The position numbers were made by a program, and so were the translations under genes. Shown piece after piece: positions 1,943 through 43,250 of a stretch of 64,000 nucleotides of DNA. The notes under the pieces were generated by a model that saw only the letters and a list, made by a program, of their open reading frames with translations, did no database searches and was not told where the DNA came from. Location: the NCBI GenBank assembly GCA_963811305.1, contig CAWEQU010000003.1:130688-194687 (forward strand), written 5' to 3'. This DNA comes from an uncultured Chloroflexia bacterium. Lineage in GTDB: Bacteria > Chloroflexota > Chloroflexia > QHBQ01 > JADMIH01. Position 1 is the first letter of the stretch; the number at the start of each line of letters is the position of its first letter.

Positions 1943-2476
1943 ATGTCAGATACTGTATGGGCCGCCATCATTGCTGTTGCTGGCGCGGTGGGCGGCACAT
2001 TACTCGGCGCCACTCTTTCACACATCTTTACCCTAATGAATAGGCGCGAAGAGGCTGAACGCCTCCGCGACCAATATTTACTCGACATTGAAGTAAAGAA
2101 AATTCAAGATGTATTACTCGCTCTCCACAATGCTACAAACATGATCAGCACGTTCAACCCGGAATCTCCAACCTACGAGAAAGACACATTAACAGAAATC
2201 AACAACTACGGCCAAAGCAACATTGACCTCAACAACCTTCTAGTCGTCACCTTACAATACTTCAAGAAGGAAGAACGCGATGCCATAAATAAAGCACGCA
2301 GGGCAATTCGAGAGCAGTTTGATCTTGCAAATGAACTCCACGAAGCAACACAAAATAACGACGAAGAAAAACGAGACACAATACTCAAAACCCTTGCAGA
2401 ACGCCAACCAAACTGGAGTGATGCTTTCTCGATAGCCATACTTATTGTAGGCACAAACTTCAACCAAGCTATCTAA
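1943..2476 (+). CDS. Hypothetical membrane-anchored protein (N-terminal TM helix plus helical or coiled-coil region), in a low-GC islet
   Basis: ORF with hydrophobic N-terminus WAAIIAVAGAVGGTLLGATL followed by a charged helical region. Local GC is visibly lower than the flanks. Confidence 0.5.
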   Translation: MSDTVWAAIIAVAGAVGGTLLGATLSHIFTLMNRREEAERLRDQYLLDIEVKKIQDVLLALHNATNMISTFNPESPTYEKDTLTEINNYGQSNIDLNNLLVVTLQYFKKEERDAINKARRAIREQFDLANELHEATQNNDEEKRDTILKTLAERQPNWSDAFSIAILIVGTNFNQAI

Positions 2477-2663
2477 AGAAGTAACATAATCAAGGATTCA
2501 CATCACGGCCAGTCCTTACGCGCAGAGGAATGCTTCGCCCCAAAAAGCGGCGCAGGCCAGTGCTAAATCAACCGCGCTCCTCGGGCGACCAGGCCAAGAG
2601 GCAAACAAAACTACACAGGATGCTATATAATACCGAAGCCCCACAATAAAGGAGTCTCAAACT

Positions 2664-3211
2664 ATGTCACCAGAATTCTGGCTCGCTATCATCGGCATCA
2701 GCGGCACCCTGCTCGCAACCATAATCCCCCAGTACTTCACCAGCAAGAAAGACGCCCGTGACCGCCAACAATGGTATGCTGAGTTCGCACTCAAACGCCG
2801 CTACGAAGCACTCAACGATCTCTACGCCAAAGCTACCACGTGCCTCCGCCAAGCTGAAGAGCAGAACCTCCAATTCCGCAAAGAACCTACAGAAGTGATG
2901 CTCGAGCTGTTAATGGGCACCGAGCCGTTCAAGATGCATTCGGCGTCGCCTCAACCTATCTTGACAGCAAAACTACCAGTATCACCGAAAACTTGATCGC
3001 CATTCTTAGCGAATACGTCTTGCTCAGCATGGAAAACGTACAGAAGGCCAGAATAAAAAAAGACTCGCCACCAACTCCCGACGAACTAACCAAACTCGAC
3101 GAAGTCTGGAAAAAGGCCAAATCCTCCCTGTTAGAACTACGCGACGATCTCAAACCTATTCTCAACCCTCCCATAGTGGACCGCTATCTCGAGGACATTT
3201 CACGCTCGTGA
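2664..3211 (+). CDS. Paralogue of the 1943-2476 protein (TM helix plus helical region); apparent frameshift near 2930 joins ORFs 2664-2996 and 2993-3211
   Basis: Same architecture: WLAIIGISGTLLATIIP N-terminal TM, then a helical region. The second ORF extends upstream in-frame as ...AVQDAFGVASTYLDSKTTSITENLIAILSEY. The combined length (~182 aa) matches the paralogue (177 aa). Confidence 0.4.
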
Positions 3212-3298
3212 GACTGAGCAATCGCCTCCTCGTATCTCGGCTCCCTTCCCCTCCTCCCTACGCGCCTCTCTGCAAGTATCTTCCACTTTGCTCGTTGC

Positions 3299-3652
3299 TC
3301 AAAGCCCCTGGCCAGAATGGAGCACTATTCCTCTGGTCATCACCTCTGTAGCGAAGGTGAACTCACGCTCCAAAGCCGACTGTAATTGCCTAGGTTCAAG
3401 CACAAGAATATCCAACGCAAGGGGGTGGTCAACGGCAGCCGCAATATTTGCAGCAGCACGTAATGGCCTGCCTCCAGCCTCCATTATCACGAGCAGGTCT
3501 AAGTCGCTATCTTCTCTTGGCACTCCATACGCATAGGAGCCAAACAAGATCACTTTCTGAGGGTGAAAGCCATTTACGATCTGCTGAACAAGCTTCTGTA
3601 AGACTTCAGAGTGTAACTTAGTTGTAATATCAGCCGTGTTGGTTGAATTCAT
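3299..3652 (-). CDS. Nucleotidyltransferase-domain protein (MNT-type, Pol-beta superfamily); no adjacent HEPN partner detected
   Basis: Motif ILFGSYAYGVPREDSDLDLLVI is the GSxxxGxxxxxSDxDL minimal NTase signature. Confidence 0.7.
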   Translation of the reverse strand: MNSTNTADITTKLHSEVLQKLVQQIVNGFHPQKVILFGSYAYGVPREDSDLDLLVIMEAGGRPLRAAANIAAAVDHPLALDILVLEPRQLQSALEREFTFATEVMTRGIVLHSGQGL

Positions 3653-3789
3653 AGCCCTGACCTTAGCGAGAAACAGGTGAAGCGGAGGTCTAGTTGACCT
3701 CTATGACCTATTCATGCCCGTTGATGCGAGAGAATTATAGCACAATGGGCGGCCCAAACGAACCGCCCATTTGTCTTTCTCAGGTTACA

Positions 3790-3892
3790 CTAACCGATAC
3801 TACCTTCCATCTGCAACTCGATCAGCCTGTTCAACTCAATCGCGTACTCTAGCGGGATTTCCTTCGTGATTGGCTCGATGAAGCCGTTGACT
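3790..3892 (-). repeat. Duplicated copy of the sufB 3' end (last ~34 codons plus stop), ~95% identical to 4655-4757 with only synonymous differences
   Basis: Direct comparison: the copy translates to [34 protein letters not shown], identical to the SufB C-terminus. All 5 nucleotide differences are silent. There is an upstream in-frame stop and no start codon. Confidence 0.8.
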
Positions 3893-3915
3893 ATCAACCA
3901 TCTCTTTTGTATTTG

Positions 3916-4302
3916 CTACCACAGAACTTCTACTGGGTATTGTGCGAATACCGCATCCCCACTGAGCAGCACAATACCTTCCACTTGTGCCTGGGTGATG
4001 AGCAGACGGTCGAACGGGTCTCTATGGTGCATGGGAAGGTTATCCAAGGCGAGTACATGCGGTAATTCAACAGGAAGTACCCGAAGGCTGTTCGATTGCT
4101 GATGGCTTGCTATGAGATCAGCGAGGGGCATAGCTAATTGCAATTTGCCAAGCTGATGCTTGATTTGTATCTCCCAGACGCTGGCCACGCTAAGTAATAA
4201 GGTATTTGCCTGGTCTTGGCACAGGGTGAGCACCCTTGGTGATAGCCTGGCAGGCTGGCTATCCCACCAAATGAACGTATGAGTGTCCAGCAGCAGCTTC
4301 AT
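3916..4302 (-). CDS. vapC: Type II toxin VapC (PIN-domain ribonuclease)
   Basis: MKLLLDTHTFIWW...D...LLITQA pattern typical of PIN/VapC. ATGA overlap with the upstream antitoxin gene. Confidence 0.75.
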   Translation of the reverse strand: MKLLLDTHTFIWWDSQPARLSPRVLTLCQDQANTLLLSVASVWEIQIKHQLGKLQLAMPLADLIASHQQSNSLRVLPVELPHVLALDNLPMHHRDPFDRLLITQAQVEGIVLLSGDAVFAQYPVEVLW

Positions 4303-4553
4303 GCCTCCCCAAGCCAGAACTCGTCGGGTAGAGGGTCATCGAAGTCTTCGCTGGTCCAGATGGCGCCGGGATGTAGACCGGCGATGCGCTGTGGCCGCTC
4401 TTGCTCGCCATTGACCGGCACAATGCGGGCCAATGTTTTAGCACCGTCGGTAAGGATTACCTCAGTGCCTTCAGCCACCAGAGCTAACAATCTGGGCAAT
4501 TGTGTTTGGGGGTCTCGCACGTCAACAGTTGTTATAGTCATTTCTGTGTCCAC
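4299..4553 (-). CDS. vapB: Type II antitoxin (Phd/YefM-like) partner of VapC
   Basis: 84-aa ORF with 4-bp overlap to vapC. N-terminus MTITTVDVRDPQTQLPRLLALVAEGTEVILTDGAKTLARIVPV resembles Phd/YefM antitoxins. Acidic C-terminal tail. Confidence 0.6.
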   Translation of the reverse strand: MDTEMTITTVDVRDPQTQLPRLLALVAEGTEVILTDGAKTLARIVPVNGEQERPQRIAGLHPGAIWTSEDFDDPLPDEFWLGEA

Positions 4554-38176: not shown

Positions 38177-39256
38177 CTATTCCGGATGAAGCGCGACAAG
38201 CGCGTCGGCGATGCGGTATATCTCCTGTGCCAAACGCTCGGCGGAGTCAAGTCGCTCTGCCCATGCCTCGGCTGATGTATACCCCAGAGCGGCATGCATT
38301 GCTTGTAGCTGTGCCGCGAACTCAGGTTTCTCGCCATCGGGAGCATCATTCTGCAGCACGAGATACAATTCGCCAGCGAGTGCCATGATCCAGAACATCG
38401 CTTCTCGATGATTCCCTTCGTCGATCATCTCCTGGGTCGCTTCGGCGAGATAGGGCCGCAGATGAGGGCGGATTGTGAAGCCATACGGCGTTGGCGTTTG
38501 ATAGACCTCAACTGACCGGTCGAAGGCGAGCACGCTCTGGTCAAGCATGGCCTGAACGTCCGCACGGCTCATGTGTGCGGACCCGAAGAGTGTGAGCGCT
38601 GCCTCATTCAGATCGGGCCGCCCTTGCGCTTCGAGTAACTCGCGCAACAGGGTCAGCGTGCGCCGCGTGGTCGGACGCTTGAGTTGAGCGACGGCAAGCA
38701 GTCCACTGAGCGCGCTGAGAAACTGCCACACGGAATCGATGCGCTCAGTAAAGGTAGACGCCTGGCGCATAGCGGTCAGGGCTTTCTCCGCCGATGCCTT
38801 TTCCTTCTCGCAGCGTGCCTCTATCCAGCGGCGCCGGCTATACTCCGCAGCGACAGCCTGTTGCAGGGGTGCGAGTATCCCGGTAGGGTCGGCCAGGATC
38901 TGCGTCGTAGCCATGTTGGGGCCATGGCTGGGGTTTGCCAGTATAGCTTCAGCGTCCTGGTGGGCTTCGAGGTCCAGCGAGATGACCTCCAGCATGAGAC
39001 CGCGGTAGAAAACCTCCACGGTGTCATCTTGTGCGCCCTTGGGCAGCACCACAACTACATCGACATCGCGGTAGAGTGGAAAGGGCGCATCCGGCGGCAA
39101 CGCGGTGATCCCGGCCCACAGATAAGCGCCAGCAAAATCTGGCAGGTGGCGTGCATGGAGGTCCACCCACTCTCGCACAATTTCTACGACTTCTATAACA
39201 GGCAGGACTGCGCTACTTCCCGCCAGACCTGCCTGTTTTGTTTCCTGCGCCGGCAT
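38177..39256 (-). CDS. Nucleotidyltransferase-fold protein with large helical C-terminal domain (function unknown)
   Basis: GAYLWAGITALPPDAPFPLYRDVDVVVVL fits the Pol-beta-like NTase G[SA]…DxD motif. Confidence 0.4.
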   Translation of the reverse strand: MPAQETKQAGLAGSSAVLPVIEVVEIVREWVDLHARHLPDFAGAYLWAGITALPPDAPFPLYRDVDVVVVLPKGAQDDTVEVFYRGLMLEVISLDLEAHQDAEAILANPSHGPNMATTQILADPTGILAPLQQAVAAEYSRRRWIEARCEKEKASAEKALTAMRQASTFTERIDSVWQFLSALSGLLAVAQLKRPTTRRTLTLLRELLEAQGRPDLNEAALTLFGSAHMSRADVQAMLDQSVLAFDRSVEVYQTPTPYGFTIRPHLRPYLAEATQEMIDEGNHREAMFWIMALAGELYLVLQNDAPDGEKPEFAAQLQAMHAALGYTSAEAWAERLDSAERLAQEIYRIADALVALHPE

Positions 39257-40031: not shown

Positions 40032-41354
40032 CTACGCTTTGAGCTGAGCCATCTCCCTTTGTACTTGAGCCTGGCCCTCTGTGGCAATCTCCATTAGCGA
40101 ACGCTCTAACGCTTCCAGGGCGTAGTCTATCTGGTCCCTGGTTATTACCAGGGGCGGCTGGACCCTGACGACGTTGCCATAGACGCCCCCTACGCCTACC
40201 AGGACACCTTTCTCCAGGCAGGAAGCTCTGATAGCTTCCGCTTGCGCCGTGGCGGGGGTCATATCTCCGGTGACAAGCTCCATGCCGATCATCAGGCCGA
40301 TGCCTCGCACATCTCCGATGATTGGGAACTGGATTTGTAAAGCTCTGAGCTTGGAGAGTACGTATTGTCCATCCTCCCAGGCTTTGGCGCTAAGCTGCTC
40401 GCGCTCTATGAAGTCGATGCTTGCCAGGGCAGCCGCGCATGACACCGGGTTGCCGCCGAAGGTGGAGAGGTGGTCGCCCGGCCTGAACGCCGCCGCGATT
40501 TCGTCTCGCGTGGTGAAAGCGCCCAGTGGGAAGCCGTTTGCAATCCCTTTCGCCGTTACCAGGATGTCCGGCTCAATGCCGTAGTGCTCGACGGCGAACA
40601 TCGCCCCGGTGCGCCCAAATCCGGTTTGCACTTCGTCGGCTATGAAGAGGATGTCGTGTTTGTCCAGGATGCGCTTCACCTCTTTGAAGTAGTCGAGCGG
40701 CGGGACGATGATGCCACCCTCGCCCAGCACCGGCTCGGCTATGAAGGCGGCTACGTCGCCCGACGTGGAGAACTGGAGGATGTCTTCCAGCGAGCGGGCG
40801 CATTGGTCGGTGATCTCGTCCTCGCTACTTGCATGCGAGCGGTAAAGATACGGGGCCTGAGAGAAAGCGACGCCTGGAGCGTAGGGTCCGCCGCGACGCT
40901 TGCGGCCTGCGTTGCCCGTAATGCTTAGAGTGCCCCAGGTGCGCCCGTGGAAGCCGTGCGTGAGGGCGATAAGCTCTGCCTTGCCCGTGTAGAGCTTCGC
41001 CAGCTTGATGGCACCCTCTATCGCTTCCGCGCCGCTGTTGGCGAAGAAGCTCTTTTTGAGCCGTCCTGGAGTAATCTGCGCCAGCTTCTCGGCGAGGTCG
41101 GCGATGGGCGCGTTGTGGTAGACGTAAGAGCAGCAATGCACCAGCTTCTCCATCTGCGCCCTGGCTGCCGCTATGACTTCGGGGTTGCAGTGCCCGGCGT
41201 TGACTACGGCTATCCCGGCAAAGCAGTCAATGTAATCTTTGCCTGCGCTGTCCGTCACCACAGCGCCTTGCGCCCTCTCGATTACGATTGGCTGGATGGC
41301 CTTCACGAAGCTGGTGATGACGTACTCCCGGTATTTGTCGAATGTGTCAGTCAT
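40032..41354 (-). CDS. Class III (aspartate aminotransferase family) PLP-dependent aminotransferase
   Basis: Full-length similarity, e.g. FIADEVQTGFGRTG and the …TFGGNPV… motif. Confidence 0.8.
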   Translation of the reverse strand: MTDTFDKYREYVITSFVKAIQPIVIERAQGAVVTDSAGKDYIDCFAGIAVVNAGHCNPEVIAAARAQMEKLVHCCSYVYHNAPIADLAEKLAQITPGRLKKSFFANSGAEAIEGAIKLAKLYTGKAELIALTHGFHGRTWGTLSITGNAGRKRRGGPYAPGVAFSQAPYLYRSHASSEDEITDQCARSLEDILQFSTSGDVAAFIAEPVLGEGGIIVPPLDYFKEVKRILDKHDILFIADEVQTGFGRTGAMFAVEHYGIEPDILVTAKGIANGFPLGAFTTRDEIAAAFRPGDHLSTFGGNPVSCAAALASIDFIEREQLSAKAWEDGQYVLSKLRALQIQFPIIGDVRGIGLMIGMELVTGDMTPATAQAEAIRASCLEKGVLVGVGGVYGNVVRVQPPLVITRDQIDYALEALERSLMEIATEGQAQVQREMAQLKA

Positions 41355-41375
41355 ATATGACTCCTATATCTACTC

Positions 41376-42113
41376 CTATATCTTGAAACTACTTTGTCGC
41401 ATGCAGGTGGGGCCTGAGTTATAGATCTTATCGGCCAAGAAGTCCGATACAATCATCTTCAGCAAGGGTGTCGCTTTTTCCACTACCTGATGATCATTAG
41501 CATCATCTGCCCTCTTGCCTCCATGTAGTAGGTTGTTCCGAACCGTATAGAGCAAATTGACTATTTCTATTGCCAAAGTATTCTTAGCCTTAACGTCTTG
41601 GTTATTCCCTTTGTAGCGCGTATACAGGCTAATATCAATTGGACTCCAAACTGGGTGGTCTTTATTAATCGTACGACCAACGTTTAGGACTCCATTTAGC
41701 TTTTGACGCTGTTTGTCATACTCCAGGCGTTCCATGTGCCAGGAAGGGGTTCGGTGCAGGAAGAATTCGATATTTGGGTGCATGATAAGACTGTGTTTCA
41801 GCTCTTCACTCAATTCAGCACATGCTAATTTTATCTGCTCTATTTCGGTTGGTCCCGATACCTCAGGGATATTTACGCCACCCTCCCGTTTTGTTATTAT
41901 ACGTCCTCTTCGAGTTCTCAGTTTTGGTACATATCCCCGATATTCAGCATTGGTTGTATAGATGTTATTGAACGCCATCCAGAGGAAAATGTACTTGTGA
42001 AACGGTTGATATCCCTCATGGGGAATTCCTCTAGTCAAAGCGAACAGTGAATAGGCTACAGGAACTTCATAACGGTGGAATACACGGCCCATAGTCATAA
42101 CCTCCATTTTCAA
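41376..42113 (-). CDS. Low-GC orphan protein with C-terminal HEPN-like R-x4-HG motif (TVRNNLLHGGK); candidate Abi/HEPN-type RNase
   Basis: AT-rich ORF embedded among GC-rich housekeeping genes. Rx4H motif near the C-terminus. No other recognisable domain. Confidence 0.35.
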   Translation of the reverse strand: MKMEVMTMGRVFHRYEVPVAYSLFALTRGIPHEGYQPFHKYIFLWMAFNNIYTTNAEYRGYVPKLRTRRGRIITKREGGVNIPEVSGPTEIEQIKLACAELSEELKHSLIMHPNIEFFLHRTPSWHMERLEYDKQRQKLNGVLNVGRTINKDHPVWSPIDISLYTRYKGNNQDVKAKNTLAIEIVNLLYTVRNNLLHGGKRADDANDHQVVEKATPLLKMIVSDFLADKIYNSGPTCMRQSSFKI

Positions 42114-43250
42114 GATAGAAGACGGCTATATTTCCTCAGTATCTCCCGAAGGCGGTCGTGGGGGAGGGCTATGACGCGGTGGTTGTCGCGGCCAACCATC
42201 GTTTCGGCGGCGACAAGGGCGTTGATGATGGCTTCTTCGGTAGCCTGGACTGTGGCATCGAATAGCGGGGTGATGGCGTTGTTGCTCAACATATCGACGT
42301 GGGCGACAGGCTCTTCGGTTGCCTGGGGATTGGCGGTGGAGAAGGCGATGAAGATGTCGCCGGAGCTGTTGCCCGCAATGCTGCCCGTTCTAGCGAGGCC
42401 CATCGTGGCGCGTCGCACGATGCGTTTTAGCTGGTGGGGAAGAAGGGGTGCGTCGGTTGCGACGACGATGATGATGGAGCCGGTATCTCCTGAAGTTGGA
42501 TTGGCTGATACGGGTCCTGGTAAGTTATCAGATAGCTCTTTGCCTACGGGCGCGCCAGCGACCAATAGCTGATGCCTGAGGCCAAAGTTGCATTGGGCAA
42601 GCACCCCTAGAACGTACCCGCCTGCATCTTCAGCTAGCTTTCTTGAAGTGGTGCCGATGCCGCCCTTGAACTGGTAGCAGACCATGCCAGTGCCGCCGCC
42701 GACGTTGCCCTCTTCTACGGGGCCGGAGCGGGCGTTGTCGAGGGACTCGAAGACGTGCTCCTCTTTGACGTGGAAGCCGTTGATGTCGTTCAGGTAGCCG
42801 TCGTACGTCTCTCCGACGACCGGGAGGGACCAGAAGCCATTAATGAAGTTGTATTGTTTCTTGCTGTTGAGGCGTAAACGCGCATGTGTCTTTATCTGCC
42901 AGGCGATTACCGAGTCTCGGACGGTGCCGACGCTGTGGGTGTTGGTAATCATCACAGGCCCTTCGAGGAAGCCCGAACTCCTCGACCCAGGTGGTGCCGG
43001 TCATCTCGCCATTGCCGTTTTGTGAGAACCAGCCAGCGAAGGCAGGCTCTATAGAGTCGCGCCCGCGTGGGAAGATGGCCGTGACGCCGGTGCGTACCGG
43101 GCCAACGCCCACCTGTAGCTCTCCTTCGCCGGAGATGAGCGTGACCTGGCCGACCTCGACGCCGCTCACGTCGGTGATGGCGTTGAGCGGGCCGGGCGTG
43201 CCGTCGAAGGGGATGCCGAGGTCGCGGGCGCGTGGCTTGGGCCGGGTCAT
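42110..43250 (-). CDS. Peptidase S58 (DmpA/L-aminopeptidase D-Ala-esterase family); apparent frameshift near 42960
   Basis: DmpA-like N-terminal region (ARDLGIPFDGTPGPLNAITDVSGVEVGQVT…) and C-terminal part (…ITNTHSVG…GGTGMVCYQFKGGIGTS…) in adjacent frames. Confidence 0.6.

Follow-up and report, generated by a model that had tools for sequence, protein, structure and literature searches.

A horizontally acquired single-gene cassette encoding a putative HEPN-like protein in a catabolic operon of an uncultured Chloroflexia bacterium

We analyzed a 64,000-nucleotide stretch of DNA from an uncultured Chloroflexia bacterium (contig CAWEQU010000003.1 of assembly GCA_963811305.1, positions 130,688 to 194,687; hereafter the window, in whose own numbering all coordinates are given), and we focus here on one small gene that stands between metabolic genes and that may encode a ribonuclease (RNase) of the HEPN type. 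The gene lies on the minus strand at 41376..42092 and encodes 238 amino acids, these coordinates including the TAG stop codon at 41378-41376. The list of open reading frames (ORFs) gives a longer version, 41376..42113 on the same strand and 245 amino acids counted from a TTG that shares nucleotides with the upstream gene's stop codon. Given that a GGAGG ribosome-binding site (42101..42105, minus strand) stands 8 nucleotides (nt) 5' of the ATG at 42092, and that homologues start at the equivalent residue, this ATG is the most likely start and the 238-residue protein the most likely product. A protein identical to it (P0001) is present in public collections.

Directly downstream is a class-III aminotransferase gene (40032..41354, minus strand; Pfam Aminotran_3, E 2e-122), and directly upstream is a DmpA-type Peptidase_S58 gene (42110..43250, minus strand; Pfam matches on both of its pieces, E 4e-89), the same two neighbors that an earlier interpretation made from the letters of the stretch (the sequence-only reading) had named. 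Genes for a NUDIX protein and an aldehyde dehydrogenase, identified with Pfam, follow farther upstream on the same strand. The spacing is tight, with 17 nt between the S58 stop codon and the ATG of the inserted gene and 21 nt between its stop codon and the aminotransferase start. We found no promoter-like or terminator-like site on the minus strand between 41100 and 42500, and the gene must therefore be read from the operon transcript. The sequence-only reading had also called the gene AT-rich relative to its neighbors, and its composition bears this out: GC content is 0.42-0.44 along the gene against about 0.60 on either flank, the gene is the lowest-GC 717-bp stretch of the whole window (0.43, against a mean of 0.569 with a standard deviation of 0.042), and its GC content at third codon positions is 0.45, compared with 0.60-0.76 in four neighboring genes.

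Searches with the aminotransferase found three relatives (95%, 93%, and 87% identical), here called L052, L053, and L055, the orthologues in the first two being 93-95% identical. Their gene order is aldehyde dehydrogenase, NUDIX (not in L055), Peptidase_S58, and aminotransferase, as in the window, and on the longest relative contig, L052, the upstream genes for an extracytoplasmic function (ECF) sigma factor, a putative anti-sigma factor, and a cupredoxin are also present. The S58 gene of the relatives is intact (374-379 amino acids), and the spacers between it and the aminotransferase gene, 79, 209, and 284 nt long, have no gene inside. When the junctions were aligned, homology broke off with two codons of the S58 gene left (approximately 42119/42118), where the S58 product of the window ends in RLLS and those of the relatives end in RL(Q/T/A)E(F), and it picked up again at the aminotransferase ribosome-binding site. 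Between these two points, about 750 bp of foreign DNA, extending approximately from 41372 to 42118 (minus strand) as aligned against the three empty sites, has thus replaced the native spacer and the last two S58 codons. Sixteen more distant aminotransferase loci are also without the gene, and several of them retain the linkage of aminotransferase, aldehyde dehydrogenase, and S58 genes. Judged by the empty sites in close relatives, the gene is a true insertion, and the inserted DNA, as the junctions align, is essentially the ORF plus its own ribosome-binding site. The foreign origin proposed in the sequence-only reading is thus strongly supported, by anomalous composition and by empty sites in relatives that are 87-95% identical in the aminotransferase, and, to the extent that comparing sequences allows, it is proven.

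The edges of the insertion carry two kinds of repeats. At the right junction there is a perfect 12-nt tandem repeat, AGATATAGGAGT in two copies (41360..41383, minus strand), detected by repeat search and junction alignment; copy 1 contains the stop codon of the inserted gene and copy 2 contains the aminotransferase ribosome-binding site. A bracketing inverted repeat has its left arm at 42108..42122 and its right arm at 41374..41388, with 13 of 15 positions matching, a score reached in 0 of 100 shuffles. Nothing comparable to either repeat was present at 23 other family loci, and since the window copy is alone in having them, we rejected the idea that a mobile cassette of this kind generally has inverted repeats at its ends. 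Both repeats may be scars of the insertion event. We likewise ruled out a tRNA-linked island, as the 64-kb window contains no tRNA and no Rfam family, and an integron cassette, since the 21 nt to the next start leave no room for an attC site and the flanks are orthologous operon genes; the 13/15 inverted repeat is not attC-like. Separately, the S58 gene of the window is carried in two overlapping frames through one extra T at 42977 (GAGTTCGGG versus GAGTCGGG), a single-base indel seen against the intact 375-379-residue orthologues in L052 and L053, and the frameshift reflects either a pseudogene or an assembly error. In L055 (JGI 3300049432), a host relative that is without the inserted gene, a DUF4145 (HEPN-family) gene lies at 2169-2606, about 400 nt upstream of the operon of aldehyde dehydrogenase, S58, and aminotransferase genes, so that HEPN-type genes may repeatedly have landed in the vicinity of this operon.

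The description of the gene as an orphan in the sequence-only reading did not hold up. We found at least 194 homologues at E <=1e-3, with 42-54% identity and nearly all 215-240 amino acids long, mostly in soil and sediment metagenomes. When 1.84 billion cluster representatives were searched with a profile, 623 clusters (50% identity) matched at E <=1e-3 and 177 at E <=1e-10, and the full-length profile matches were all single-domain proteins. Among contigs sampled at one genome per species, 28 loci carry the family, and they are spread patchily over at least eight phyla, including Chloroflexota (Anaerolineales, Chloroflexia, and Dehalococcoidia), Acidobacteriota, Bacteroidota, Actinomycetota, Pseudomonadota, Planctomycetota, Verrucomicrobiota, and others; besides the three Chloroflexota groups, the taxa named for these loci are Vicinamibacteria, Blastocatellia, Chitinophagaceae, Rubrobacteraceae, Burkholderiales, Pirellulales, Tepidisphaeraceae, Verrucomicrobiae, and Neomarinimicrobiota. 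At 26 of 27 loci, the family gene has a GC content below that of the flanking DNA, the mean difference being 7.4 points. Copies are split or truncated at three loci (L013, L018, and L032). Three Burkholderiales loci (L021, L023, and L025) are syntenic around the gene, suggesting vertical inheritance in that group, and one Burkholderiales metagenome-assembled genome holds two paralogous copies on different contigs (L020 and L021).

One viral copy was found among 2.9 million IMG/VR contigs. It lies at 7956-8708 of L035 (UViG_3300048592_000721), about 100 nt from the contig end, divergent from an adjacent phage-type DNA methyltransferase/ParB-like gene whose product shares 38% identity with proteins of Gordonia phages; a large terminase gene is 4.6 kb away. 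The contig is that of a real phage or prophage.

We compared the surroundings of the gene across loci to see what, if anything, travels with it. In an all-against-all comparison of 30 loci, no family of ORFs of at least 70 amino acids within 10 kb, other than the gene itself, was common to three or more loci, and among ORFs of at least 30 amino acids within 700 nt we saw recurrence only among the three syntenic Burkholderiales loci. We therefore rejected a conserved partner or antitoxin, none being evident in neighbor comparisons over 27-30 loci, and the earlier description of a single-gene module holds. The 147 neighbors within about 3 kb, pooled over 27 loci, include Druantia DruE, type I and type IIG restriction-modification genes, MADS mad2/mad8, DISARM DrmMI, PDC candidates, and two phage integrases, together with many housekeeping genes. 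Individual loci have a 1143-residue UvrD/AAA_30 helicase directly downstream, DUF6414 genes plus an SWI2/SNF2-methylase pair, a DDE transposase, or DUF5677. Given the lack of a recurring neighbor and these mixed contexts, we conclude that the gene is solitary and mobile and that its association with defense islands, which the sequence-only reading had proposed to look for, is only partial: it is seen at some loci, but the neighborhoods as a whole are mixed.

What the product may do is suggested mainly by its C-terminal part. As the sequence-only reading had noted, it contains TVRNNLLHGGK, and within it the putative catalytic Rx4H motif, R185-N-N-L-L-H190, is encoded at 41523..41540 on the minus strand (R185 to H190 at nt 41540-41523). 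We scored conservation in an alignment (A5) of 105 diverse family members, which defines all conservation counts given here. Both R185 and H190 are kept in 83/105 members, and residue 186 is N in 70 and H in 6; in published descriptions of HEPN domains, the position following R is usually taken by N, D, or H (PMC3710099). N187 is kept in 102 members, W38 in 104, and F41 in 99, while R114 and G134, both within the insert described below, are invariant (105/105). The 35 closest members all have R185, N187, K193, D197, and D200, and nearly all have H190, in a conserved block that reads L-Y-T-V-R-N-N-x-F-H-G-G-K-R-x-D-D-A-N-D. From these counts, the insert appears to be constrained more strongly than the putative active site.

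AlphaFold2 (AF2) models of the window protein and of a distant member, P0235, have the same layout and similar confidence (predicted local distance difference test score [pLDDT] 90.9 each; predicted template modeling score [pTM] 0.86 and 0.89). In the window protein, a short helix (residues 11-21) is followed by a long helix (30-51) that carries W38-x-A-F-N-N-I-Y45, the putative HEPN helix 2 motif (codons at 41958..41981, minus strand); a conserved alpha/beta insert of about 115 residues (52-166; codons at 41595..41939, minus strand) that would separate putative helices 2 and 3; a second long helix (167-190) with the R-to-H motif at its C-terminal end (185-190); a loop (191-200); and a last helix (201-218). 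The insert includes the motifs HxxTxFFxxRTPxW, GQRLNGVxNV, and PVWSPID, and its pLDDT is mostly above 90. The loop after the motif (G-G-K-R-x-D-D) was modeled with low confidence, as was a C-terminal tail of 15-18 residues in the window protein that has no counterpart in the family. In these models, the penultimate long helix ends in the motif, in agreement with the published HEPN description, and inserts between helices 2 and 3 are typical of HEPN domains (PMC3710099).

Searches with hidden Markov models (HMMs) gave recurrent weak matches among the 105 members, all of them covering the C-terminal motif segment, and the recurrently matched models appear to be HEPN-type or HEPN-motif-bearing. 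Pfam MauJ was matched by 33 members (best E 4.9e-5, profile positions 26-115 of 116) and PADLOC DzbB by 32 (best E 1.4e-5, model positions 285-332 of 341). Cas13a was matched by two members under PDLC02152 (best E 8.9e-5) and by one under a second Cas13a model, HEPN_Apea by two (best E 0.006), and HEPN_RiboL-PSP by two (best E 0.011). Models of the CARF-HEPN/Csx1/Csm6 kind were matched over this segment as well. The homologue A0A6J4MRL9 bears the automatic UniProt name 'Apea-like HEPN domain-containing protein'. We looked in the literature for work on MauJ and HEPN and on DzbB and found nothing useful.

Taken together, these observations are best accounted for by an HEPN-like single-gene toxin or defense cassette, a reading that is unproven and to which we give about an even chance; the HEPN fold, the RNase activity, the latency, the trigger, and the role in defense are all things that we infer. 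According to this reading, a promoter-less single-ORF cassette was acquired horizontally, landed between the S58 and aminotransferase genes of a catabolic operon, and, as part of the operon transcript, would be translated with the help of its own GGAGG. The core of the product would be HEPN-like, comprising two N-terminal helices, the insert of about 115 residues, a helix ending in YTVRNNxxHGGK, a loop, and a final helix, and, by analogy with solitary HEPN effectors, whose mechanism is the most likely one here, it would cleave RNA independently of metal ions, relying on R185, N186/N187, and H190 and probably forming a dimer or larger oligomer. A toxin that stands alone and shares the transcript of a metabolic operon has to be latent, and we propose that the protein would be silent in normal growth and switched on by a signal derived from infection or stress, whereupon cleavage of tRNA, rRNA, or mRNA would lead to growth arrest, as in abortive infection or the action of a toxin. 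The insert, which is kept even in the clade that is without the motif, is a candidate sensor or substrate-binding module. A more far-reaching version, in which the family would be an unrecognized single-protein immune or toxin system with a split HEPN RNase, the insert as its built-in sensor that frees the nuclease upon infection, and a bare promoter-less ORF that replaces operon spacers with no recognizable mobility gene, strikes us as speculative and unlikely.

A number of results weigh against the reading of the gene as a HEPN-like defense or toxin cassette. The bare R-x4-6-H pattern is at chance level, with four occurrences in the window protein and 2.1 expected, and R-x4-H occurs in 79 of 206 six-frame window ORFs of at least 100 amino acids, so that the motif is meaningful only through its conservation and position. 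In 22/105 members R185 and/or H190 is missing, and R114, G134, W38, and N187 are better conserved than either, raising the potential that the common function of the family may not need Rx4H; as the alignment reads, the members that are without the motif form a sizeable clade that is probably catalytically inactive, and inactive clades are common within HEPN families (PMC3710099). Helix 2 (W-x-A-F-N-N-I-Y) has no conserved acidic residue or Ex3[KR], features found in many, not all, HEPN families (PMC3710099). Our helix numbering is an assignment from AF2 secondary structure. Foldseek searches of the Protein Data Bank (PDB) with the two AF2 models returned nothing below E 0.2, HEPN entries appearing only in the noise (5yjc, E 3.2; 7ae6, E 7.1); a Foldseek search of BFVD with one AF2 model gave nothing significant either. 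Sequence searches of the PDB with the single protein, the full profile, and a C-terminal sub-profile produced only chance matches, such as Pumilio and a metallophosphoesterase. Scanned with Pfam, NCBIfam, and PADLOC models, the window protein scored above no threshold, its own matches being only to CARF-HEPN models of the Csx1/Csm6 type at E 0.02-0.03, and no family member passes any curated HMM cut-off. A comparison by hhalign with a DUF4145 (HEPN) alignment, which was built from the gene in a relative's locus, gave a probability of only 3.8%; in favor of the HEPN reading, its single alignment (P 0.011) places H190 on the catalytic histidine and matches the following loop and helix. As regards mobility and defense, tblastn of the window protein against plasmid and phage record collections found no match, and many of the pooled neighbors are housekeeping genes (among them histidinol dehydrogenase, Glu-Cys ligase, a tRNA synthetase, YceG, and MTHFR).

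Weighing both sides, we consider membership in the HEPN superfamily likely, whereas the chances that the protein is an active RNase in this clade seem to us to be evenly divided. The HEPN assignment of the sequence-only reading is likely but unproven: the motif is conserved in 83/105 members, its helix position is as it should be, and weak HEPN-type matches recur, but no curated threshold is passed and the Foldseek and PDB profile searches were null. The profile evidence is weak rather than absent, and the relatives show no conserved housekeeping context for the gene. The family is uncurated and uncharacterized, and it is most probably a new part of the HEPN world.

Alternatively, the gene may encode a helical/beta protein that is not a nuclease, such as a nucleic acid- or ligand-binding protein, a regulator, or an anti-defense protein, with R-x4-H serving a structural purpose in one clade. 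The ranking of conservation, in which R114, G134, W38, and N187 come before R185 and H190, would fit this, as would the 22/105 members without R or H, the lack of a significant structural or profile match to a solved HEPN protein, and the chance frequency of the bare motif, and a copy borne by a phage would also fit an anti-defense role. However, the motif, with a polar residue after R, is kept in 79% of members together with G-G-K and D-D-x-x-D, its position at the end of a helix fits HEPN, the recurrent weak HMM matches are each to a HEPN-type module and cover exactly the motif segment, and a clade without the dyad is what other HEPN families would also show (PMC3710099); we regard a non-nuclease as somewhat unlikely. 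A different possibility is that the protein acts as the toxin in a toxin-antitoxin or addiction module, that we missed the antitoxin because it is a tiny ORF, an RNA, or encoded elsewhere, and that the gene is maintained selfishly and not for defense against phages. Toxins of the HEPN type are common in toxin-antitoxin pairs, HEPN-MNT among them (PMC3710099), the gene itself is mobile and of low GC content, and the gene model of one homologue, P0112, was labeled a YefM-type antitoxin by the Joint Genome Institute (JGI), probably a misannotation. Yet the neighbor comparisons recovered neither a recurrent protein within 10 kb nor a recurrent small ORF within 700 nt beyond the three Burkholderiales loci, the gaps of 17 and 21 nt leave no room for a partner in the window, and nothing in the window matches Rfam, which together make this explanation improbable.

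The remaining alternatives concern the operon in which the gene landed. The protein could be a MauJ-like accessory of amine metabolism that works with the surrounding genes, given that MauJ, which comes from methylamine-utilization clusters, is the best curated Pfam neighbor of the family and that the window gene lies inside an operon of the amine or beta-amino-acid catabolic type. Against this, the operon runs without the gene in its three closest relatives and is likewise without it at the 16 more distant loci, the family neighborhoods have no common metabolic theme, the composition is foreign, and the MauJ matches are below threshold and confined to the C-terminal motif region; we therefore rejected a functional link to the operon on the evidence of the empty sites and hold a MauJ-like role to be very improbable. 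It is also conceivable that the gene is a recently acquired passenger that is non-functional in this host and is decaying. The S58 frameshift would be consistent with an operon in decay, and split or truncated copies do occur in the family, while the window protein has a low-confidence tail that others do not share. Still, its ORF is intact, every invariant or near-invariant family residue is kept, the ribosome-binding site is good, and the model is confident (pLDDT 90.9), and of all the explanations that we considered, mere decay has the slimmest chance of being right.

Returning to the HEPN-like cassette, we compared it with known systems. ApeA (PF18739) resembles it in being a solitary gene without an antitoxin and in having the R-x4-H motif in a C-terminal helix, and both proteins carry a large non-catalytic module that possibly holds the enzyme latent pending a signal. 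ApeA, which illustrates how such latency can be achieved, is a single-gene HEPN anticodon nuclease that is activated by a ligand in a pocket outside the active site and that forms doughnut oligomers cleaving tRNA anticodon loops (bioRxiv 10.64898/2026.01.26.701840). It has a beta-rich N-terminal domain of about 300 amino acids before the HEPN domain (PMC3710099), whereas the window protein has 238 residues in all and its extra module lies inside the putative HEPN core; with family proteins of 205-250 amino acids, there is no room for ApeA-NTD1. Membership in HEPN_Apea was rejected, since the only bit score seen, that of P0235, was 16.5 (E 0.012) against a cut-off of 24.4, and the window protein gave no match. 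DzbB of the Dazbog system (PDLC03836) is the most frequent defense-model match, with the motif helix, the loop, and the last helix aligned, but the likeness is limited to about 45 C-terminal residues and the DzbB model has about 340 positions, compared with 220-240 amino acids in the family. Dazbog acts by abortive infection and consists of two genes, the first of which carries DUF262 (bioRxiv 10.1101/2022.08.27.505566); we rejected membership because no DUF262 DzbA neighbor is present, and none is recurrent in 27-30 loci. MauJ (PF17419), a methylamine-utilization protein of unknown function, is closest among curated Pfam families, but the best family score of 24.6 bits falls short of the gathering cut-off of 28, the window protein has no match at E <=10, and the family shows no link to mau clusters.

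Within the wider HEPN superfamily (DUF4145, Csm6/Csx1, Cas13, and HepT), the shared features are R-[N]-x3-H ending helix 3 into the helix-4 loop, an insert between helices 2 and 3, mobile contexts of the conflict type, and clades without the motif (PMC3710099); one difference is that the insert here is unusually long and as conserved as the motif. A HEPN-MNT pair (type II/VII) was excluded, there being no MNT neighbor, no conserved neighbor, and only the two short gaps in the window. A distant relative is WP_041394273.1, a hypothetical protein of the Sphingomonas taxi plasmid STP2, which shares the C-terminal module IYCVRCNLFHGAK (hhalign 96%, E 3e-9, 42 columns) and a W-x-x-F-N helix near its N-terminus. 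It has 192 amino acids, its middle region is different and apparently helical, it is unannotated, and the relation covers only the C-terminal 42 columns. Its gene, at 3575-4153 of L057 (NZ_CP009573.1, a mobilizable plasmid), follows genes for a DpnII endonuclease, an SMEK-domain protein, and DUF2326, and its module reads YxVRxNxFHGxK. This defense-type cluster places the wider superfamily in the territory of conflict systems.

Should the HEPN reading be true, the family would be an uncurated and fairly large set of solitary RNase effectors from soil and sediment bacteria, joining the few single-gene HEPN defense proteins such as ApeA, and the insert would be a candidate for a new sensor module; should it be wrong, the gene would be a horizontally acquired hypothetical protein. 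In either case, the locus is an unusually clean natural case of gene gain, in which nothing but an ORF and its ribosome-binding site took the place of an operon spacer, and the empty sites in close relatives bring the acquisition, and what it costs in fitness, within reach of experiment.

Two other parts of the window deserve mention. Downstream of the operon, a 359-residue ORF (38177-39256, minus strand) without a Pfam match has a stretch resembling a nucleotidyltransferase (...YRDVDVVVVLP...) and, after it, a long helical region, and at this position L052 and L055 carry different genes. A second low-GC patch spans 1943-4553, and its contents were judged by eye from the sequence only. They would comprise two hypothetical membrane-anchored proteins (1943-2476 and 2664-2996, plus strand), a solitary MNT-type nucleotidyltransferase with no obvious HEPN partner (3299-3652, minus strand), and a VapB-like/PIN-domain pair (4299-4553 and 3916-4302, minus strand) beside a SufB-like gene.

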